This document shows, in pieces, positions 23,994 to 36,178 of a stretch of DNA of 36,178 nt (position 1 is the first letter of the stretch; every line of letters starts with the position of its first letter). The translations under genes and the position numbers were made by a program. The DNA comes from a virus (lineage: Duplodnaviria > Heunggongvirae > Uroviricota > Caudoviricetes), in IMG/VR virus record IMGVR_UViG_2695420793_000017. One strand, given 5' to 3'. The notes beneath the pieces are model-generated. The model had not been told where the DNA came from. It saw only the letters and a list, made by a program, of their open reading frames with translations, and made no database searches.

Positions 23994-24012
23994 GGCTGCC
24001 AGTTTGGCAGCC
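23994..24012. terminator. possible bidirectional terminator hairpin between Q and the NTPase gene
   Basis: GGCTGCC-agttt-GGCAGCC hairpin; flanking T-runs are weak. Confidence 0.3.
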
Positions 24013-24019
24013 AGAACCT

Positions 24020-25270
24020 TTATCGCCATTTTAGATAAAAAGCAAAAAATGGATCAGTAATATGCAACTTTCGGTCCTCCTTATCCCAATCTATTACAGG
24101 AGTTGAAGCTTCTTCCGTAGCAGCTATTTTAGCCATTTTTTCTATAACACGAGTAACCTCATGAGCTTGTGGAGGAGCATCTTGCACCAGTTCGCGTATG
24201 GCTGATCTTAACTCCTCATACTGAATACTTTGCATTCCTGGTTTCATATGTGACAATGCATATAATACAACTTTATATATATCTACTTCCTCACCACTTT
24301 TCAGTTTTCTAGGAATTCTGTCAGTTCGCTGATTAGGGCCACTAGCTAACTTATCAAATACTATTTTCCCAGTGGATTCTGCAACCTTTCTAAAAATATC
24401 ATCATCTAAAGAATTAATAACTAACTTACTCGGCAAAGTTTCTTTAACATTATTTACTAAGCATATAGCCTTGCAAAACTCTTGCATTAAATGAGGGCTT
24501 CCCAATGATTCATTGGCAATTTTATCAATTACTGAATCACTAACTTCCATGTTTAACAGAGGAAATCCCACTTTTGCTATTTGTTTTAGTTCATCCATTT
24601 CCCACGAAGGCATGGAAATATTTTCTAGCCGTCCGGTAATTTCTTTTTCAACTTTTACAGCATCATATCTTCGATGTGGAATGGCTATCAGTACAACTGG
24701 TACTCCATCAAAAACTAATGGTTTTATCGCTCTAATAAAGTTACCTTGTAGGTCACGATCAAGGTAATGAAAGTCATCAATTATAAGACTAGACTTGGTT
24801 TGAGAGAGAACTTTTAGTGCAGAACTTTTTGCGGATATCGTTCGCGATTTTTTATTACCATTTGACTTTCCATCCGTCTGAACTAAACCAGCCTCACCTG
24901 TACCTTTAACAACGAATGCACTTGCGGTCCCCGATACCTTACCACTAACTGCAATAGCACTATTTTCTCCAGAATTAACTTCAATACTATGGTAGCCATT
25001 TAGTTTTTCTAATACCTGCTCCCAAATATCATCTTCAGTTGTAATACTCCCACCGTCAATCCATACAACATCATCGTCCATAACTGGGAATACCATTCTT
25101 GTAATTACAGTCTTACCAGACTTTGTTTGCCCAGTTAAAGTCACTAACTTACATAAATTATCTTTAGCACTCTCCAGTTTTCCATGAACCTCTCCTTCAG
25201 AGCGCTCAACATAAGTCAATTTCGGCATACCGCCAGGCACAAAAACTTGTGAAGCACGTTGTTTATCCAT
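24020..25270 (-). CDS. P-loop NTPase of unknown function (accessory gene, candidate anti-phage defence)
   Basis: 416-aa ORF; Walker A GQTKSGKT and Walker B-like LIIDDFHYLDRD; visibly AT-rich versus neighbours; lies between cos and Q. Confidence 0.8.
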   Translation of the reverse strand: MDKQRASQVFVPGGMPKLTYVERSEGEVHGKLESAKDNLCKLVTLTGQTKSGKTVITRMVFPVMDDDVVWIDGGSITTEDDIWEQVLEKLNGYHSIEVNSGENSAIAVSGKVSGTASAFVVKGTGEAGLVQTDGKSNGNKKSRTISAKSSALKVLSQTKSSLIIDDFHYLDRDLQGNFIRAIKPLVFDGVPVVLIAIPHRRYDAVKVEKEITGRLENISMPSWEMDELKQIAKVGFPLLNMEVSDSVIDKIANESLGSPHLMQEFCKAICLVNNVKETLPSKLVINSLDDDIFRKVAESTGKIVFDKLASGPNQRTDRIPRKLKSGEEVDIYKVVLYALSHMKPGMQSIQYEELRSAIRELVQDAPPQAHEVTRVIEKMAKIAATEEASTPVIDWDKEDRKLHITDPFFAFYLKWR

Positions 25271-25378
25271 GAATACTTCCCAATTAACACAGTTCTAGTG
25301 AACTACGATTCTAAAATAACATCTGAGCTTGGACAATTAACATTACATGATTTGAGTATTCAAAGCCACAAGCGCGCG

Positions 25379-25397
25379 CTCGTATCCCCGCCACGCC
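25379..25397 (-). other. putative cos cohesive-end sequence
   Basis: minus strand reads GGCGTGGCGGGGATACGAG, matching the start of the P2/186 cohesive ends as I recall them; exact 3' part differs. Confidence 0.5.
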
Positions 25398-25776
25398 TGC
25401 CCGCTTTATGCAGTGGTTTTCATGCACATGCATGACATGAGCAAAAGCCCGCCAGTTCTGGCGGATCTGAGCAAAGACGATCCTCAATCGATCATGCGAT
25501 TTCATGCAGCATAGTCATGCACTGTCAAGGAAGTGAAAATCCGTATCTGAATGGCCACTTGAAAAACGGATCATACGGGTTTACAAAGATGAATGTTCGC
25601 TGTGAACGGGAAGCGGAAGTTAGCTTTCAGATAACATAATCCATATGCACGAGAACCTCTAAAATAGAATGGGACACCTAAGCGGGGTACTTACAACGAT
25701 TCTTTCCATATTCACAGTTAACACTCTGTTTGGCGTATTTTTATTCAAATAGCAAACACCAATAAAAGGAGTTTCC

Positions 25777-26112
25777 ATGAACAATATTCCCCCTATACCA
25801 CAGTTAGGAATTTATGTCTCAAAAATCGATCCCACCCTACGTATCACTGTAACCGATGTTGATATTGTTGATGGTGAGGATGATTCTCCTGATGATGAAT
25901 TGTTTTATTTAGTCCACTGGATCGAGGGGGAAGATGAAAGTGATATGACAGCAATGGGATTTGAGCTAGACCCAGTAGAGTGGCAGGCTTTCGTTGAATC
26001 TGAGCAATTAGTGTTTGAGCGTGATCCGTACATGGATTCAATCCCCGAAAATTCAAACTTGGCAAAGATTCGGGATTTTCTCATGAAGACTAAACAGAAT
26101 GATCATTCGTAA
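25777..26112 (+). CDS. highly acidic hypothetical protein (possible DNA mimic)
   Basis: 111-aa ORF; AAAGGAG Shine-Dalgarno 7 nt upstream; about 26 Asp/Glu versus about 7 Lys/Arg by hand count. Confidence 0.65.
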   Translation: MNNIPPIPQLGIYVSKIDPTLRITVTDVDIVDGEDDSPDDELFYLVHWIEGEDESDMTAMGFELDPVEWQAFVESEQLVFERDPYMDSIPENSNLAKIRDFLMKTKQNDHS

Positions 26113-26304
26113 GTGTAAGCATCCATCAGGAAAATGGTTTTGTAAGTGAATCATCAACTTTTAGAGAGTCTCAGACACTCCCACTTCTGCTTCTGACACA
26201 AAGCGGACGATCACTTATCAAAATAACCGCCCACCTTACGCCTTATTTCACTCATTGCCCAAACTAGCCCCCATCAGAATGAATCCTCCTGGGGGCCACG
26301 TTTC

Positions 26305-26538
26305 TTAATGCAGCCAGCTGTCGTCCTCCCACACCTTCTGCATAATTTTCATCACTTGTTTTCTTTCTTCATCCAGTTGCAGTCCGGTTAGTTCCACACC
26401 GTTAGAGCTACCTTTGCGAATGCGAATTACCGTTTTGGGATACAGGGGGCGCAGATTGCGGTAAAGCTCGGATTCAAGGGCGTCCAGGGTAGACTGGCTA
26501 ATCTTCTGCTCTTTATCGATCATTATTTCAATGCGCAT
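26305..26538 (-). CDS. DinI-family protein
   Basis: MRIEIMIDK...WEDDSWLH resembles E. coli DinI (MRIEVTIAK...WESADDWF) as recalled; start set at ATG 26538 with a GAGGTGA Shine-Dalgarno overlapping the upstream stop. Confidence 0.7.
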   Translation of the reverse strand: MRIEIMIDKEQKISQSTLDALESELYRNLRPLYPKTVIRIRKGSSNGVELTGLQLDEERKQVMKIMQKVWEDDSWLH

Positions 26539-26548
26539 AAAAGTCACC

Positions 26549-26737
26549 TCAGCTGATGACATCCATTGAGCGGTTGTATTCGTGACTTCTGATTTTTGCC
26601 ATAAGTTCATCAGTCAATTCAGAAACCCACTGCAGAGCCAGCCCCTTCTCTTCATCACTACACTCACTAGCCGCTACAAGCTTAAGAAAAAAATCAATGC
26701 GCTGAAGCTTCAAAGACTCCAAAAAATAGTCCTGCAT
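26549..26737 (-). CDS. small hypothetical protein, first gene of the LexA-box operon (possible Tum-like N-terminal module)
   Basis: 62-aa ORF with an AGGAGG Shine-Dalgarno; a LexA box lies about 45 nt upstream; translationally coupled to the dinI-like gene. Confidence 0.55.
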   Translation of the reverse strand: MQDYFLESLKLQRIDFFLKLVAASECSDEEKGLALQWVSELTDELMAKIRSHEYNRSMDVIS

Positions 26738-26777
26738 CTTTCCTCCTATGACACCAAAACAATACTGTATACATAAC

Positions 26778-26797
26778 CACTGTTTATATTTACAGTA
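26778..26797. promoter_or_regulatory. LexA box (SOS operator)
   Basis: cACTGTttatatttACAGta = CTGT-N8-ACAG with an AT-rich spacer, overlapping a candidate -10 for the minus-strand operon. Confidence 0.65.
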
Positions 26798-26889
26798 TAT
26801 AATAATCTTACTGATGTAAAACGTTTTTTTACGTTCATCGGCCTGATATGCCTGGTATTATTAAGAGCACGAATTGTTAACCCGCGTAA

Positions 26890-29304
26890 TTAATACAGGT
26901 TCCGCCACTTATCATCTTCCTTCAGACGCTGGTTCCGATAGAAGATACGCAGGCCTGCTCCTGACGGAATACTGCCGCCGCGAAGGAGCAAATCGACTTC
27001 TTTCTCGCTGCCATCAAATCCCCTGGACTTCAGTTCATAGACGAGCTGCTGTCGCTGATGGTCTGTAATTCGCTGTTTGTAGTCTTTACGCCGTTTCGGT
27101 TTCACCTGGCGTAACCTTGCAGCCAGTTCCCGGCGCTCTTTTTTGCTCATACTGTGCAGGTAATCGTGCAACTCCTTGTCATTCATACGGGTAATATCCG
27201 TTCTGGAGTCCCCATCAGCTGATTTGTCTTTCCCTTGTTGGTTCAAATTTTCAGCAAGGGGACAGTTATTGCCACGAGTCCAAGGGGCGCAAGCGCCCTG
27301 GTCGGCTGCCGCCTCCTGAACATCAACGGCCTTACGAACCATTTTCCACTTCACGGCATGAGTGCAGATCTTGCCCTCTGCAATAGGTGACCAGATGCCA
27401 TAAATACGAATGCCGTGATCGCCATAGGCGGTCGGCTCTTCGTTGATTTCATAAGCGGTTCTGATGAGGTGATATTTGCGGGGAACCAGTACGCCGCCCT
27501 GCTTCATGATGTAGGTGGCAAAACAACCAGCATCAGCAGCAGCCAGGATGGCATCAAGGCGTGGGTTATCCAGTACCGGCGCACCTGCTTTTTTGTCCCC
27601 CTGTTGCCTTGCCGCCTGACCAGCCAGCAATCGCAGTTCACGGTAAGCCTGACGCCCCGGAATGCCAAAGAAGCGGAATTGCTGAACACGATGCAGAGAC
27701 GCCCAGGCATTCACGTATTCAGCGTTATCACGCAGAGATTTACCCGTTTCCTTACTGATCTCGCCAGCCAGACCACGCCCGTCAATGTTCTTGCTGATAT
27801 ATTTCGCGATGTAGCTTGTCGGCGTTCCTTTGCGCGGGTTAATCAACTCAGACTTAAAGCGCGGCCCCGTGTTATTGCCCAGCTCCTCGCGGTCTTCACG
27901 AATGGCAAACTTACGCAACAAAGCAGTAATGGCGCGGCGATCTTTTTTGCGCATAAAACACAACAGGTGCCAGTGAACTGTACCGTCATGATGCGGCTCC
28001 GCCACCCGCACGCCATACCAGCGCAATCCGGATTTGTGCATAGCCTTACGAAATGCAGCAAACATGCCGACCAGATAATCGCTGCTTTGTCTTACTGTCG
28101 CGTTGGTCCAGGTCGGGTTTGGCCTGCCGTTATTTAGCGTGGAATGGAAACGTGACGGACAGGTGATGGTGTAGAAAACGGCGCAGTCACCACGCATTTC
28201 CGCGATAAGCTCCAGACCTTTAACGCAGGCCATCATCTCATTGCGGCGATGCGCCGGGTTGCTGCTGCTGGCGTTTACCACATCCTCCATGTCCAGCGTG
28301 TCGCCGTCTTCGTTCACCAGTTCATGAGAGCGGAAAAACTCCAGCGACTTACGGCGCTGCTCACGTTTATGCATCACGGCTTCATAGCTAACATAGGGAG
28401 ATGCTTTTTTGCTGACCAGACAAACAGCACGCAACTGCTCTTCCCGCCATTCGCAACGCATCTTCCATAATTTCCGATACCACCAGTCGGCGCACAGCAT
28501 ACGCGCCAGCGAACCCGGAATGAGTTCATAGGGCACAGGTTTGCGGCGGTTTCTTTTCCGGCGGAGTTGCTCAAACGCAGGCGGTATGACATCCAGTCGC
28601 AGGGTTTCTGCTGCCACCTTTTCCCATGTCTTGCGGATTTCTTCCGGCTTAACATCATCGGAGGCATACAAATCGCCACAAGCTGCATCAAGGCACATGC
28701 TCATATGCGCAGCAACAAGGGTGGACAGGCGTTTCACCTGATCCTGACTCATTTCAGGCAGAATCAGCAGGCCGTCCAGCCCTTCATGGCTTGCCATAAA
28801 GCGAAAAGAAGTGGATAGCTGACTGTCGCGTACATGCTCCAGCCGTTCCAGACATGGCTTAATCGTCTCACGCAAATAGCGGGAATAAGCCTTTGGCCTG
28901 CCCAGGCTGCTGAAGTATTCAATACGTTGCATCAGCGGCTTGCTGATATGGGAAGGCTGGGCGCTGACATCTGCCAGAATGACCATGTCCGGGTTAAAAC
29001 GCTGCTGTTCATGCGCCAGCTTTGCCCGGCTAATGAGCTTATCCTGCTCCATTTCGCGCTGGACAGGATCACGGGATTCATTAAAGAAATAACGTTCCCA
29101 GACCTGATCACTCAGTGCCTCGCGGCGGCGCTGTTCCTGCTCGTTATCAGCAGCGTACAGAGTGATCATGTTTGAAAGTGCAGACTCCGGCGCAACTTCC
29201 GCCGGTTCCAGATAAGGGTTAATGGCCTTTTTCGGGCCGTTCCATGAAAATGCTGCGGCAGCCTCGTTAAAGCCGCTAGAGTTGCTCATATCGTCATGAC
29301 TCAT
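26890..29304 (-). CDS. A: replication initiation protein A (rolling-circle nickase family)
   Basis: 804-aa ORF at the gpA position in the early operon. Confidence 0.8.
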
Positions 29305-31601: not shown

Positions 31602-32060
31602 ATGACTAAACAAAGCTCCGAATACTTCCAATTACACTACTGTTATTACCTTGAACTAATGACAGCAACGTTCCATGGTCGAGCTGATAAATTAATGACA
31701 GCAATCCAACTTATAAGCGGAACAGCTGTATTTGCTAATACAGGTCTGGAATGGTTGTTCGCTTTTCCTGTTGTTGTAATCGCAACAATCCAACTTGTAT
31801 GGCAACCAGCTATTATTGCGGAACGAGCAAGCATACAAAGCCGACAATATGGTGAGTTGCTTTACGCCGAGGATGAATTGTCTCCACAGTTCATTGCACA
31901 AAAATTGAAAGCTTTGCATCACTCTGACTCCACAACATTCGGATCTTTGTTAAACCCTGCCTACAAAAGAGCTGCTATTGCCTGTGGTCGGGTTGACGAT
32001 GTAAACCTCAGCTTCCAAGAAAAACTTTTCGCTTGGTTCGCAGGTTGTTTGCCACGTTAA
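31602..32060 (+). CDS. hypothetical membrane protein (moron, opposite strand to the early operon)
   Basis: 152-aa ORF with a hydrophobic segment; AGGAAT Shine-Dalgarno; lower GC by eye; bracketed by the 60-bp direct repeats. Confidence 0.55.
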   Translation: MTKQSSEYFQLHYCYYLELMTATFHGRADKLMTAIQLISGTAVFANTGLEWLFAFPVVVIATIQLVWQPAIIAERASIQSRQYGELLYAEDELSPQFIAQKLKALHHSDSTTFGSLLNPAYKRAAIACGRVDDVNLSFQEKLFAWFAGCLPR

Positions 32061-32248: not shown

Positions 32249-32758
32249 TCACAGCAAACCGAATGAAGCACCGAGGCCAGTCACGGTATCAACTGCACTC
32301 GCCATCGCAGGATTAGCCTGTAAACGGGCCTGCAATGAAACAGCAGCCAGCGCCATCAGTCGTGTTACAGAGTTAATGCTGCTGATAGCATCACGACGAC
32401 CGGCACTAGTTTTTACATCACCAGATACCGCACCTGCTGCAACACGTCCGATCTCTGCAGTTGCGCTCATGACGTAATGCGGCAGTTTCTCTTTTGCAAC
32501 CTCATTAATCGGTACACATGGCAGGCAGTGAATCTGTGCCAGAAAACCATCTACCAGCGTTGAATCTTCAGTCAGATCGGTAAGCAGCCAGATTTCTGGT
32601 GCAGTTAATAAATGAGGTTGAGATGGGTTCAGCTTGTTCCGCAGAATCTGCACATTCATGCCAGCACGTTCTGCCAGTTGCACCAGGTTGTGGCGCAATG
32701 CGAATGCACGACAGGCTTCATCAAAATGTGGATGTTTGGAAACTTGGTAATCAAACAT
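32249..32758 (-). CDS. cII: CII-like lysogeny establishment regulator (186 type)
   Basis: start set at [19 protein letters not shown]..., which matches the N-terminus and length of phage 186 CII as recalled. Confidence 0.75.
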
Positions 32759-32790
32759 GGTCGATACCCCTGATGTATCCCAAAATGGAA

Positions 32791-33012
32791 CTAGTTGAAT
32801 ACAACATTGCAATCAGTAAGTGCATCAACGGTAAGAGCAGCAAGGTTGATCATCACCTTTTCTCTTTTCTTGTCTTTCCGAAGGCGATGCCGAGGGATGC
32901 GACCGTCAGCCAGCATATCGTTAATTGTATCGATTGAAAGACCAGTAAGTTCGCTATAACGCTCAATTGTGACATGTGGCGTATTCAGAGTTATTGAAAT
33001 GTTAGGGGTCAT
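32791..33012 (-). CDS. apl: Apl/Cox-like excisionase and transcriptional regulator
   Basis: 73-aa HTH-like ORF divergent from cI and first gene of the lytic operon. Confidence 0.65.
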
Positions 33013-33100
33013 GATGCAACATCTCCTATTGGCTTGTGGTGAGCCGGTTTGAATTGTGACCAGAACTTCACAAAACGGAGATTAGGATCTCATAACGGTT

Positions 33101-34039
33101 ATGTCAACTCAAAAAAACACATTTCGCCATATTAGCGAGAGTCTAAAAACTTCAATAATGCAAAACCGTGGGGGACAGAAAGTAATTGAGCGTATACTTG
33201 CTGCGTATGGTTTTACTTCGCGGCAAGCATTTTGCAATCATCTGGGTATCTCACAAAGCACGATGGCTAACAGGTATGCTCGTGACACATTTCCTGCTGA
33301 CTGGGTGATAATTTGCAGTATAGAGACCGGCGCATCTATCGACTGGTTGGCATCGGGAATCAGCTGTGAATCATCCTCAGTTTTATTAAATGATGAACGT
33401 TTAGCCCATACCAAATCTGATGACCTGGATAGAACTAACTCAATAGCCCAAAAGTTCCCAATCGAGACCAGCATAAATCCTAATAAAGGAGGGAAGGCGG
33501 CAATTGATCGCTTAGTCGCAGCCTACGGCTTTAGCACCCGACAAGCCCTAGCAAACCATTTGCAGGTTTCAAAAAGCACTGTAGCAAACAGGTACTTACG
33601 AGACACGTTTCCTAGCGATTGGATCATTCAATGCGCTCTTGAAACAGGAACTTCATTACTCTGGCTCACAAACGGCAATGGCCCCAAATTTATCGATAAT
33701 TCCAGCTCTGTAGCCCAACTTAAACACCAAACAATCATTGACGGTAAATTACATGATGAAGGCTACTTAGCATTTGACAAGACGCTTATACCTTCCGGAT
33801 TGAAAAAACCTATTGGAGTTACCGCAGAAGGAAAAACCTTTATTGCAGATACAGAATATGATGATGTTTCAGATGGTAGTTGGTTGATTGAGATTGAAGG
33901 TAAAGTAAGTTTAAGAAAATTAACAAGAATTCCAGTTGGAAAAGTAAAAATCACATCAGATACAACTGATTTTGTTTGTAAGCTTGAAGACATTACAACC
34001 ATCGCAAAATGTTGTTGCGTTTTTTCAAAGGAAATTTAA
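33101..34039 (+). CDS. cI: CI-like immunity repressor with a tandemly duplicated N-terminal DNA-binding domain
   Basis: 312-aa ORF; two homologous modules (...ERILAAYGF.SRQAFCNHLGISQSTMANRYARDTFPADW... and ...DRLVAAYGFSTRQALANHLQVSKSTVANRYLRDTFPSDW...) followed by a C-terminal domain. Confidence 0.75.
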   Translation: MSTQKNTFRHISESLKTSIMQNRGGQKVIERILAAYGFTSRQAFCNHLGISQSTMANRYARDTFPADWVIICSIETGASIDWLASGISCESSSVLLNDERLAHTKSDDLDRTNSIAQKFPIETSINPNKGGKAAIDRLVAAYGFSTRQALANHLQVSKSTVANRYLRDTFPSDWIIQCALETGTSLLWLTNGNGPKFIDNSSSVAQLKHQTIIDGKLHDEGYLAFDKTLIPSGLKKPIGVTAEGKTFIADTEYDDVSDGSWLIEIEGKVSLRKLTRIPVGKVKITSDTTDFVCKLEDITTIAKCCCVFSKEI

Positions 34040-34049
34040 AGGAACATAC

Positions 34050-35039
34050 ATGAATTCTGAAAATAAAAAAAATGAAAACAACGATTATGTTGAAAAAGTT
34101 AATTGCGAATGGAAAGATCTTTATAATATTTTAAATGAAAATCTGCATAAATTTAATGAAAATGAACGCGCCTACTTAGTCGACTTATTAAAAAAAGGTG
34201 AACTTGATAAATTCAGAGAATACTACTGGAAATTAGCCCAGCAAGAAAAAATGAACTACAGCGATAAAGCTGGAGATATTTTTATTAATGAAAACAATAA
34301 GATAGATGAATTAATAAAAGAACAAAAACATCTTCGAGAGATAATGCGATCATATACCAAACGTTTATTGGAGGCTGAAGAGTCCAAAGCTACGTTACAT
34401 CTTCGGAATGAGAATTTAGAAAAACTAAATTCTGAAAAAGAAGCAATTATTGAGCAAGCCGTATCTAGAATAAAGCAACTTGAAGCATCTAACAGCGAAT
34501 TACAAAGCCGAGTACAACAAGAAAGGATTGATGAGAAAATACCAGGATATGTCGATAGCGTTAAAAGTGAACTAAGTTCAGATGACTTATATTTCATTAA
34601 AATGTCGCAAGTATGGGCTTTTACTGGCTGCATTTTTGGGCTACTTGCTGTATGTGCATCATTTTATACACTCTACGCCACAATTGACTTCAACAATGTT
34701 AAAGGCTTTGAGCTATTTTATTTTTTCACACGTGGTTTAATTGGTATTTCCATTCTTTCTTGGCTAGCATATATTTGCCTTGGCAACTCTAAAAAATATA
34801 CCCATGAATCAATTTTGAGAAAAGATAGAAGACATGCACTAATGTTTGGGCAAGTATTCCTGCAAATTTATGGTTCCACGTCAACAAAAGAAGATGCTGT
34901 GTTAGTCTTTAAAGACTGGAATATGTCTGGTAACTCTGCATTTTCTGACAAAACAGAACTCCCTCCGGGAATCCAATCTTTATGGGATTCAACCAAAGAA
35001 AAACTAAAGCCAAGTACCGCTGAAAAAGCACAGGAGTGA
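34050..35039 (+). CDS. hypothetical coiled-coil/two-TM protein (AT-rich moron between cI and int)
   Basis: start set at MNSENKK (AGGAA Shine-Dalgarno); Lys/Glu/Asn-rich coiled-coil N-half, two hydrophobic helices; strongly AT-rich by eye. Confidence 0.7.
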   Translation: MNSENKKNENNDYVEKVNCEWKDLYNILNENLHKFNENERAYLVDLLKKGELDKFREYYWKLAQQEKMNYSDKAGDIFINENNKIDELIKEQKHLREIMRSYTKRLLEAEESKATLHLRNENLEKLNSEKEAIIEQAVSRIKQLEASNSELQSRVQQERIDEKIPGYVDSVKSELSSDDLYFIKMSQVWAFTGCIFGLLAVCASFYTLYATIDFNNVKGFELFYFFTRGLIGISILSWLAYICLGNSKKYTHESILRKDRRHALMFGQVFLQIYGSTSTKEDAVLVFKDWNMSGNSAFSDKTELPPGIQSLWDSTKEKLKPSTAEKAQE

Positions 35040-35074
35040 GGCCAATGTTTATTTCACCCTAAACATACATTGAT

Positions 35075-35094
35075 AACTGTTTAAATATACAGTT
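35075..35094. promoter_or_regulatory. LexA-box-like palindrome upstream of int
   Basis: aACTGTttaaatatACAGtt = CTGT-N8-ACAG; function uncertain. Confidence 0.35.
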
Positions 35095-35100
35095 AAATTT

Positions 35101-35125
35101 AGCCCTCTGATATGAGGGCTTTTTT
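35101..35125 (+). terminator. rho-independent terminator abutting the int start
   Basis: AGCCCTC-tgatat-GAGGGCT hairpin followed by TTTTT immediately before the int ATG at 35126. Confidence 0.55.
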
Positions 35126-36178
35126 ATGGCAGTACGAAAACTCACCACAGGAAAATGGCTTTGCGAATGTTACCCTGCCGGACGTAGTGGACGTCGTGTG
35201 CGTAAACAATTCGCCACCAAAGGCGAAGCTCTGGCTTTTGAGCGTCACACGATGGAAGAAACCGAAGCAAAACCCTGGCTGGGTGAATCAGTGGATCGTC
35301 GAACACTGAAAGACGTGGTTGAACTATGGTTCAAACTACATGGTAAATCTCTGACAGCTGGGCAGCATGTCTATGACAAATTGCTGTTGATGGTTGACGC
35401 TCTGGGAAATCCCATTGCAACCGATCTCACCTCTAAAATGTTTGCCCACTATCGAGATAAACGCCTGACAGGAGAGATCTACTTCAGCGAAAAATGGAAG
35501 AAAGGAGCAAGCCCGGTCACCATTAACCTGGAGCAAAGCTATCTTAGTAGTGTTTTTAGCGAACTATCCCGCCTGGGCGAATGGTCGTATCCGAACCCAC
35601 TGGAGAACATGCGAAAATTCACCATCGCAGAAAAAGAGATGGCATGGCTTACCCATGAGCAGATTGTTGAATTACTGGCTGATTGCAAACGTCAGGACCC
35701 AATTCTGGCACTGGTAGTTAAGATATGCTTAAGCACAGGCGCACGCTGGCGTGAAGCTGTAAATCTTACCCGCTCACAGGTGACCAAATACCGAATTACC
35801 TTTGTAAGAACGAAGGGGAAGAAAAACAGAAGCATCCCTATCAGTAAAGAACTTTACGAAGAGATCATGGCGCTTGATGGGTTCAATTTCTTCACAGACT
35901 GCTATTTTCAATTTTTATCTGTGATGGGAAAAACGTCTATCGTGCTCCCTCGCGGTCAACTGACACACGTTCTGCGCCATACGTTTGCGGCGCATTTCAT
36001 GATGTCGGGTGGAAATATCCTTGCTTTGCAAAAAATCCTCGGACATCACGACATAAAAATGACTATGCGTTACGCACATCTGGCACCGGATCATCTGGAA
36101 ACGGCGCTCCGTTTCAATCCTCTGGCAACGCTGCCAAGTGGCGACAAAGTGGCGGCAGCGGTTGGCATTACCCCGTAA
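35126..36178 (+). CDS. int: tyrosine integrase (P2/186 type)
   Basis: 350-aa ORF; C-terminal ...HVLRHTFA...GHHDIKMTMRYAHL fits the tyrosine recombinase catalytic region; stop is the last codon of the window. Confidence 0.85.
   Translation: MAVRKLTTGKWLCECYPAGRSGRRVRKQFATKGEALAFERHTMEETEAKPWLGESVDRRTLKDVVELWFKLHGKSLTAGQHVYDKLLLMVDALGNPIATDLTSKMFAHYRDKRLTGEIYFSEKWKKGASPVTINLEQSYLSSVFSELSRLGEWSYPNPLENMRKFTIAEKEMAWLTHEQIVELLADCKRQDPILALVVKICLSTGARWREAVNLTRSQVTKYRITFVRTKGKKNRSIPISKELYEEIMALDGFNFFTDCYFQFLSVMGKTSIVLPRGQLTHVLRHTFAAHFMMSGGNILALQKILGHHDIKMTMRYAHLAPDHLETALRFNPLATLPSGDKVAAAVGITP
36140..36160. repeat. putative attL core (GGCGACAAAGTGGCGGCAGCG) inside the int 3' end
   Basis: 20/21 identical to 2835-2855. 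Confidence 0.5.

Follow-up and report, generated by a model that had tools for sequence, protein, structure and literature searches.

The stretch of DNA analysed here is IMG/VR virus record IMGVR_UViG_2695420793_000017 (36,178 nucleotides; hereafter the window), which represents the right-hand part of a 186-like (Peduoviridae) E. coli prophage integrated next to rcdA/ybjJ. Between its repressor gene cI and its integrase gene int lies ORF329, a gene that, as comparison with related prophages indicates, is cargo in a variable repressor-integrase slot. Its product joins a hypervariable helical N-terminal region to a conserved C-terminal domain with two predicted transmembrane (TM) helices, and this domain recurs elsewhere in fusion with immune-type domains. 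An anti-phage function of some kind is likely on these comparative grounds. The reading preferred here, to which a probability of about 50% is given, is that ORF329 constitutes a single-polypeptide, lysogen-expressed abortive-infection system, in which a variable cytoplasmic sensor would control a membrane-breaching effector with two TM helices (2TM).

Genes at the repressor-integrase junction

The regulatory region and its right flank contain the following elements, with product lengths in amino acids (aa) and distances in nucleotides (nt).

32249-32812, minus strand: cII, at the left end of the regulatory region
32791-33012, minus strand: apl/cox, in the regulatory region
33101-34039, plus strand: cI repressor gene (312 aa), upstream gene of the presumed operon, annotated by PGAP as "phage repressor protein CI"
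34039-34043, plus strand: Shine-Dalgarno sequence AAGGA, 6 nt 5' of the ORF329 ATG, read from the sequence
34050-35039, plus strand: cargo gene ORF329 (329 aa, ATG start), phrog_2628, WP_060615102.1
35126-36178, plus strand: int, tyrosine integrase gene, the conserved right flank of the slot

Positions 33000-35200 are 100% identical to the chromosome of E. coli strain Ecol_224, and in a 100%-identical E. coli chromosome RefSeq/PGAP annotates ORF329 at the same coordinates as a hypothetical protein (WP_060615102.1). The flanking genes are readily identified: the cI product matches Pfam families Phage_CI_repr (8.4e-55, in two stretches) and Phage_CI_C (1.5e-30), and the int product matches Int_N (1.6e-32) and Phage_integrase (1.3e-21).

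The initial annotation of the window, made from the sequence alone, had described an AT-rich gene that starts right after the cI stop with a Shine-Dalgarno sequence of its own, and this description is borne out. The cI stop codon occupies 34037-34039, leaving a gap of 10 nt (34040-34049) before the ORF329 start codon, and the surrounding segment (34020-34070) folds with only -1.2 kcal/mol and is thus unstructured. The guanine plus cytosine (GC) content of ORF329 is 33.3% (27% at third codon positions, GC3), compared with 51.1% for the window and 47.9% for int. The reading frame is not a chance product, because a stop-free stretch of 329 codons at this base composition has a probability of about 1e-12, and because ORF329 has 167 homologous clusters, matches phrog_2628 and shows a purifying ratio of nonsynonymous to synonymous divergence (dN/dS). 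The match to phrog_2628, a family with no assigned function, is full-length (E 1.1e-88; residues 22-326 against profile positions 13-311 of 314).

A variable cargo site between cI and int

In the reference phages the slot is empty. The stop codon of cI and the start of int overlap in phage 186, whose annotated lysogenic operon runs cI-int-orf69 and then ends at a terminator; in phage P2, int comes next after C, without an intervening gene. The arrangement that the initial annotation had given for these two phages is therefore correct, and the comparison with further prophages that it proposed reveals unrelated genes at the same junction. The int type of the window is present in 1133 of 5426 complete E. 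coli genomes, but the cI-ORF329 arrangement occurs in only about 24 of those 1133; the ORF329 family as a whole is found in 154 of the 5426. Among the sampled prophages at the same attachment site, whose flanking int genes are 91-100% identical, five different slot contents were found:

DUF4041 + T5orf172 protein, 558 aa (PADLOC PD-Lambda-1, 7.3e-120): loci L001, L002 and L018
Old, 589 aa (PADLOC Old, 5.6e-234): locus L019
YdcA-family gene, 63 aa: loci L020, L022 and L023
ORF329 paralogue, 314 aa, 50% identical: locus L021
ORF329, 329 aa: the window

All of these genes are in the orientation of cI and begin 11-43 nt after its stop codon. Nucleotide homology between the window and its sister prophages resumes at 35043-35064, only 4-25 nt past the ORF329 stop. 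The slot being empty in 186 and P2 and filled with unrelated genes in sister prophages with near-identical int, ORF329 is identified by this comparison as cargo, in agreement with the earlier proposal that a gene had been added to the repressor operon. Among the alternative occupants, Old and PD-Lambda-1 are validated anti-phage genes.

The same site is used beyond E. coli. Across homologue loci from a one-genome-per-species collection (n=7), the cII-apl-cI-X-int position is occupied by ORF329 homologues in Enterobacteriaceae isolate RIT714, Dryocola, Brenneria and Yersinia rohdei. A distant homologue of 357 aa lies between an integrase gene and a CI_C fragment plus Abi_alpha (PADLOC PDC-S47, 7e-56), beside smpB and a restriction-modification system. 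In Y. rohdei ATCC 43380 (L007, 6551-8016) the slot holds the homologue together with two further open reading frames (ORFs) of 168 and 307 aa, neither of which has a PADLOC match, and the int gene of this locus is apparently frameshifted into two overlapping ORFs. Published surveys point to related hotspots: Rousset et al. (2022, PMC9122126) described a cI-int defence hotspot in K139-like relatives of P2, and the int-primase interval carries 8% of P2 defence systems (PMC13586616).

Relative to locus L045 (E. coli S3), cI and ORF329 show a synonymous divergence (dS) of 0.66-1.4, compared with 0.13 for the adjacent int. Because the values for repressor and cargo lie far above that for int, the history of the immunity-plus-cargo module differs from that of int, and the breakpoint falls directly behind the cargo stop codon.

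Transcription signals around ORF329

Three elements lie between the end of ORF329 and int:

35070-35098, plus strand: promoter-like element TTGATA ... TTAAAT, with -35-like and -10-like hexamers enclosing the LexA-box core
35077-35092, plus strand: perfect LexA-box core CTGT-N8-ACAG (CTGTTTAAATATACAG)
35101-35126, plus strand: intrinsic terminator with a 7-bp GC-rich stem (hairpin 35101-35120) and a T6 run abutting the int ATG

The terminator folds with -13.3 kcal/mol (z -3.25), a stability reached by 0 of 200 shuffled sequences. It is conserved whatever the cargo, and the stem in Y. rohdei differs in sequence while remaining complementary. More broadly, the 85 nt 5' of int are conserved irrespective of the cargo. 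Upstream of ORF329 the situation is different. No promoter-like site was found between cI and ORF329, and the absence of an obvious terminator there, pointed out in the initial annotation, is upheld: the sole hairpin, at 34003-34019 in the 3' end of cI, was rejected as a terminator on account of its weak folding (-4.1 kcal/mol, z +0.38). The arrangement is consistent with co-transcription of cI and ORF329, which is plausible because the gap is only 10 nt, no terminator precedes ORF329 and a strong one follows it. These signals suggest a bicistronic cI-cargo lysogenic transcript that would end at the 35101-35126 terminator, so that the operon most likely stops before int.

The integrase gene may be governed separately. 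Both CTGT and ACAG are kept in 10 of 10 aligned loci, and 14 of the 16 core columns are invariant. It is possible, judging from this conservation, that int has its own SOS-controlled LexA-box promoter, unlike the situation in 186; transcription would then probably start inside the 5' arm of the hairpin and hence escape termination. Only one other perfect CTGT-N8-ACAG core is present in the window (26780-26795), with 0.5 expected by chance. Just downstream of the replication endonuclease gene and upstream of a minus-strand ORF of 101 aa (26305-26610), this core occupies a position that resembles that of the LexA-controlled promoter of the tum antirepressor gene of phage 186.

Anatomy and predicted topology of the protein

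An alignment of 48 ORF329 homologues (A1), combined with hydrophobicity and structure prediction, divides the protein as follows, all on the plus strand:

34050-34490, aa 1-147: hypervariable N-terminal region, with a small helical head (aa 5-72) and the first part of a long stalk resembling a coiled coil
34491-34949, aa 148-300: conserved C-terminal domain, an antiparallel helical hairpin of about 60 residues with a 2TM tip and a third conserved helix
34608-34676, about aa 187-209: TM helix 1 (TM1), where 19-residue Kyte-Doolittle windows reach 1.7-1.8
34710-34787, about aa 221-246: TM helix 2 (TM2), from hydrophobicity and conservation in A1
34788-34922, aa 247-291: conserved polar segment beside the membrane, predicted to be cytoplasmic (KKYTHESILRKDRRHALMFGQVFLQIYG...VFKDWN)

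A Lys/Glu/Asn-rich coiled coil followed by two hydrophobic helices had been noted at the outset, and the composition fits: residues 1-180 are rich in E (27), K (21), L (20) and N (19), and the two helices follow directly. The two parts of the protein evolve very differently. Mean column conservation in A1 is 0.29 for aa 1-147 and 0.74 for aa 148-300, with median pairwise identities of 16% and 63%, respectively. Relative to the closest E. coli allele (strain S3), dN/dS is 0.25-0.27 in the N-terminal part and 0.04 in the conserved part, and relative to more distant alleles synonymous sites are saturated. Given these values, positive selection on the N-terminal part was considered and left undemonstrated. 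At the DNA level, ORF329 resembles the 314-aa allele and the Dryocola gene only from about 34476-34506 onwards, a point that coincides with the domain boundary, and its N-terminal coding part has no detectable DNA similarity to either of them. The N-terminal region is presumed to be a sensor or specificity module and the conserved C-terminal domain an effector module.

Conservation is concentrated in and behind the second TM helix. A1 contains 45 invariant columns; TM2 is better conserved than TM1 and includes the invariant residues Y224, R228, G229, G232, L236 and W238, and the invariant positions on the cytoplasmic side include H252, E253, R257, K258, D259, H262, F287, K288, D289, W290 and N291. 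Some of these persist at much greater distance: E253, H262, A263, G267 and W290 are invariant even in remote relatives fused to TIR or EAD11 domains, and the polar residues kept across all architectures are E253, R260 (near-invariant) and H262.

The full-length AlphaFold model (predicted local distance difference test score, pLDDT, 73) has a small helical head at aa 5-72 and a single long helix at aa 81-209 that runs into TM1. For the C-terminal domain, AlphaFold2 with 77 sequences gave a pLDDT of 90.7 and a predicted template-modelling score (pTM) of 0.76; the model shows antiparallel helices 149-211 and 219-274, about 60 residues each, whose distal halves form the TM hairpin, followed by two shorter helices. 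Both termini are probably cytoplasmic by the positive-inside rule, because the N-terminus lacks a signal peptide-like hydrophobic stretch and the segment after TM2 (SKKYTHESILRKDRRH) is strongly basic. The predicted periplasmic loop then comprises only about 10 residues and is poorly conserved, and the conserved residues are either cytoplasmic or within TM2.

A superfamily with immune associations

When 1.84 billion cluster representatives (50% identity clusters) were searched with a profile built on the C-terminal domain (A2), at least 458 proteins were retrieved at E<=1e-3, 279 of them at E<=1e-10. In the 458 clusters the domain is always C-terminal, placed behind N-terminal regions of about 10-270 residues. 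A Pfam scan of 64 remote members identified EAD11, TIR_2 and MgtE_N among these N-terminal domains, along with weak single hits to DUF4062 and CAP12-PCTIR_TIR. EAD11 was found in 4 of the 64, most clearly in protein P0175 (E 4.7e-20; 71.8 bits against a cut-off of 26), and on four independent contigs the EAD11 fusion gene lies directly upstream of a gene for a 766-aa protein with nSTAND3 and a weak Mrr_cat match. Effector-associated domains (EADs) act as adaptors through which effectors are linked to conflict systems (PMC7159879).

A second profile (A6), built from the remote members alone, broadened the picture: about 90 of the 120 hits listed are proteins of 300-325 aa in which an N-terminal TIR_2 domain precedes the conserved C-terminal domain. 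These TIR_2-2TM proteins, among the hits listed, come from hosts that include E. coli, Salmonella, Klebsiella, Serratia, Enterobacter and Pantoea. The relationship is supported by hhalign, which aligned the ORF329 domain profile with the E. coli TIR-2TM protein at 97.7% probability (E 1.8e-12, residues 154-294).

The genomic settings of these relatives are informative. The E. coli TIR-2TM gene (321 aa; L038, 788-1753; contig DABYWJ010000068.1) lies in a P2-like prophage between gpG (tail-fibre assembly) and the sheath genes, a gpG-FI site that corresponds to the Z/fun moron position of P2. In Enterobacter hormaechei the gene (321 aa; L041, 6001-6966) follows ogr at the prophage end; the same prophage has a 447-aa DUF4062 gene inserted among its tail genes. 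The Salmonella gene stands beside HNH nucleases, an insertion sequence element and a methylase-HNH pair, and a 417-aa relative is cargo in a P22-portal-type phage, beside an HNH gene. In Chimaeribacter, an ORF329-type gene is found by itself amid housekeeping genes, and no cI gene was detected in its vicinity; this solitary placement suggests that the protein can work without a partner encoded alongside. A tblastn search of ORF329 against 50,697 deposited phage genomes gave no match, and the ORF329 family is known only from prophages and metagenomes.

From these profile searches, the conserved domain defines a larger superfamily that has no name and has immune associations. The ORF329 family is uncharacterised, and the domain is absent from Pfam and PADLOC. 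No paper on WP_060615102.1/ORF329 was found in the literature, and its links with TIR and EAD11 fusions and with cargo sites at three positions in P2-family prophages appear to be unreported in the searchable literature.

Proposed function and alternative explanations

The initial annotation had put ORF329 forward as a candidate superinfection-exclusion or abortive-infection membrane protein. A defence or exclusion role is supported by the alternation of Old and PD-Lambda-1 in the slot and by the immune-type fusion partners of the conserved domain, TIR and EAD11, to which the nSTAND3 neighbour may be added. In the mechanism proposed here, the cI operon of the lysogen would express ORF329, and the helical hairpin would sit in the inner membrane with both termini cytoplasmic. 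The N-terminal head and the stalk of about 100 residues would sense a cue from the infecting phage. Once activated, the C-terminal module (the 2TM hairpin and the polar three-helix segment) would oligomerise, and the oligomer would breach or depolarise the inner membrane, so that the infection is aborted.

Superinfection exclusion without cell death, on the model of P22 SieA, T4 Imm, HK97 gp15 or K139 Glo, would have an inner-membrane protein block genome entry or an early membrane step of the incoming phage. The predicted inner-membrane location of ORF329 and its presumed expression with cI in the lysogen accord with such a role, as does its place in a hotspot for exclusion and defence genes (PMC9122126), but it is considered unlikely. 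With nearly all of the mass predicted to be cytoplasmic and a short, variable periplasmic loop, an abortive-infection effector is favoured over a periplasm-facing entry blocker; the fusion of the conserved domain to cytoplasmic TIR and EAD11 domains and its link to a STAND NTPase likewise point to intracellular sensing or effector logic, and no homology to an annotated Sie family was detected in PHROGs, where all matches are of unknown function. Less probable again is a conversion or maintenance function outside defence: ORF329 might, for example, stabilise the prophage as a membrane toxin or addiction module, modulate induction or integration, or contribute to host fitness or virulence. Homologues that stand alone at non-prophage chromosomal sites with no cI detected nearby, or that occur in unrelated phages, argue against such a function, as do the immune-type fusion partners and neighbours of the domain; in its favour are the location of ORF329 in the lysogenic operon, the many roles that AT-rich morons can have, the divergence of cI and cargo as one module relative to int and the presence of the small YdcA-family gene in the same slot.

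The least probable of the alternatives, and a rather remote one, is that ORF329 is a receiver-effector: a conserved basic pocket beside the membrane would bind a small-molecule signal made in trans, such as a TIR-derived nucleotide as in Thoeris, and the N-terminal part would only scaffold oligomerisation. What makes it worth considering is that, among the listed remote hits, the same domain is most often fused to TIR_2, that the polar residues E253, R260 and H262 persist in every architecture, and that SLATT effectors of type VII Thoeris have been proposed to bind cyclic ADP-ribose (cADPR) in basic pockets between protomers (bioRxiv 10.64898/2025.12.03.692087). However, neither the ORF329 operon nor the slot contains a signal-generating gene, a hypervariable N-terminal part is what would be expected of a specificity module, and lone-gene occurrences exist.

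Several points weigh against the abortive-infection reading itself. The functional case for ORF329 is drawn from comparative genomics, and guilt by location is imperfect in a slot that also holds the 63-aa YdcA-family gene. Searches for known relatives returned nothing significant for ORF329 in PADLOC-DB 2.0.0 (best JukA, E 0.5, and LeoBC, E 0.59) or in Pfam, a profile search against PDB sequences gave nothing below E 0.1, and Foldseek with the full-length model against the PDB found only generic helical proteins (best E 0.23). The likeness to SLATT proteins discussed below depends on Foldseek scores that are not significant (E 0.06-0.6). The N-terminal part is under relaxed purifying selection (dN/dS about 0.25) with no demonstrable positive selection. 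Furthermore, the 2TM hairpin could be a plain membrane anchor, and in the TIR fusions the TM domain could merely tether an enzymatic effector.

A broader and more tentative proposal, regarded as possible but doubtful, is that the C-terminal module represents a widespread immune effector domain apart from SLATT. Built as a helical hairpin with its 2TM segment at the tip and an invariant polar pocket beside the membrane, it would be modular, combined with TIR, EAD11, MgtE_N-like or hypervariable coiled-coil sensors, and would have been captured repeatedly by P2/186 prophages in at least three hotspots (cI-int, gpG-FI and after ogr). ORF329 would then be the founding member of a single-polypeptide sensor-pore family whose specificity is re-assorted by recombination at the domain boundary.

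If the abortive-infection reading is correct, a compact one-gene membrane defence system would be added to the E. coli repertoire, and an effector domain would be named for hundreds of uncharacterised proteins with TIR, EAD11 or coiled-coil fusions. The cI-int junction of enterobacterial 186-like prophages would be a defence hotspot expressed with the repressor, with a terminator and a LexA-box promoter that apparently insulate it from int. The pair of 329-aa and 314-aa alleles, in which the effector is kept and the N-terminal parts are swapped, provides a natural domain-swap experiment on sensor gating.

Other features and cargo of this prophage group

The repressor of the window has two tandem Phage_CI_repr helix-turn-helix (HTH) domains (about aa 19-101 and 118-196) before CI_C, whereas the CI protein of phage 186 (192 aa) has one Phage_CI_repr domain. 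The duplicated-HTH form is common to several sister prophages (L004, L019, L045), and the C-terminal third of the window cI is AT-rich (34% GC).

A 152-aa ORF at 31602-32060 (plus strand) may be a second moron. It matches phrog_6315, of unknown function (8.9e-76), is inserted between two fil-family genes in the orientation opposite to that of the early lytic operon, and is hydrophobic over a central stretch; Pfam, NCBIfam and PADLOC gave no match. On the minus strand, a 416-aa ORF (24020-25270) matches the candidate defence family PDC-S59 (PADLOC 2.4e-31). It is situated in an island of 37-43% GC (about 24000-27000), flanked by portal-side genes on one side and the replication endonuclease gene on the other, at the site of the classical P2 hotspot. 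Sister prophages have further cargo sites: hypothetical genes of 240 aa (L022, 5102-5824) and 89 aa (L018, 5174-5443) lie between int and the attachment-side rcdA, and an FRG-domain gene (L023, 753-1688; PADLOC PDC-S15, 8.5e-32) lies among tail and baseplate genes.

Comparison with known families and systems

Several candidate assignments were rejected. The Pfam match to DUF2207_C (PF20990; 24.6 bits against a cut-off of 33) spans the coiled coil and the TM helices and looks compositional, as does that to the crescentin rod domain (18.9 bits against a cut-off of 100), and the NCBIfam match to Omp28 reached 18 bits against a cut-off of 200. A class II holin is likewise excluded: such holins are 2TM proteins of about 70-150 aa encoded in a lysis cassette, and ORF329 has 329 aa and lies in the lysogenic operon. 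Remote relatives gave weak PADLOC matches alone, mostly to coiled-coil proteins (best E 1.2e-5).

A close architectural parallel is offered by the SLATT ("SMODS and SLOG-associating 2TM effector") proteins (Burroughs et al. 2015); the set compared includes CBASS-associated effectors and ThsH of type VII Thoeris. Both have a 2TM helical hairpin, flanking conserved cytoplasmic helices and a basic region beside the membrane, and the ORF329 superfamily is likewise fused to or located beside TIR domains and found in conflict systems. SLATT effectors presumably form oligomeric membrane-breaching assemblies, and ORF329 is likewise proposed to kill by oligomerising in the membrane. In contrast to SLATT systems, ORF329 has no nucleotide-signal partner in its operon, with a variable helical N-terminal part of 185 residues in its stead, and it has a conserved motif of its own (Y-T/M-HES..K.DR.HA..FG ... 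F..WN). Foldseek against BFVD gave no significant hit; 5 of the top 25 are annotated as SLATT, with TM-scores of 0.4-0.5, a weak structural hint. None of the SLATT Pfam families (SLATT_1-6) matched ORF329 at E<=0.1, and SLATT was not among the 25 families listed, out of 30, for the 64 remote relatives at E<=0.01. ORF329 is thus SLATT-like in architecture, partners and context, and SLATT membership is not supported by the profile test.

With P2 Old and PD-Lambda-1, ORF329 shares the slot, the orientation, the spacing after cI and a near-identical int; all are single genes that are presumably expressed in the lysogen. Neither sequence nor mechanism relates these two to ORF329: Old is an ATPase-Toprim nuclease and PD-Lambda-1 combines DUF4041 with a T5orf172 nuclease-like domain, both being soluble enzymes, whereas ORF329 is a predicted membrane protein. 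In K139, glo lies in the corresponding cI-int slot; Glo is a periplasmic exclusion protein without similarity to ORF329. The hotspot of K139-like vibriophages also carries variable defence cargo between repressor and int of a P2-family prophage, but it belongs to another host clade and phage lineage, and neither the 186-like enterobacterial slot nor the ORF329 family is described there (PMC9122126).

Lambda RexAB, PycTM of Pycsar, the 2TM protein of retron Ec48 and the TIR + 2TM + 1TM system of the P2-like phage AC1 share with the proposed mechanism the logic that cytoplasmic sensing gates a small TM effector which collapses the membrane, and several of them are prophage-borne and lysogen-expressed. 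These systems are multi-gene or nucleotide-responsive, whereas in ORF329 sensor and effector are apparently fused; no sequence homology between them and ORF329 or its relatives was detected by PADLOC. Homologous counterparts are the TIR_2-2TM proteins of Enterobacterales (about 321 aa, annotated as "TIR domain-containing protein"), which have a homologous C-terminal 2TM domain and also occur as single-gene cargo in P2-like prophages or in defence-island-like regions. They differ in having a TIR module in place of the variable coiled coil and in their hotspots, gpG-FI and after ogr. In kind, ORF329 as read here combines two known themes: prophage repressor-integrase hotspots that carry defence genes, and membrane effectors to which a sensor is fused.

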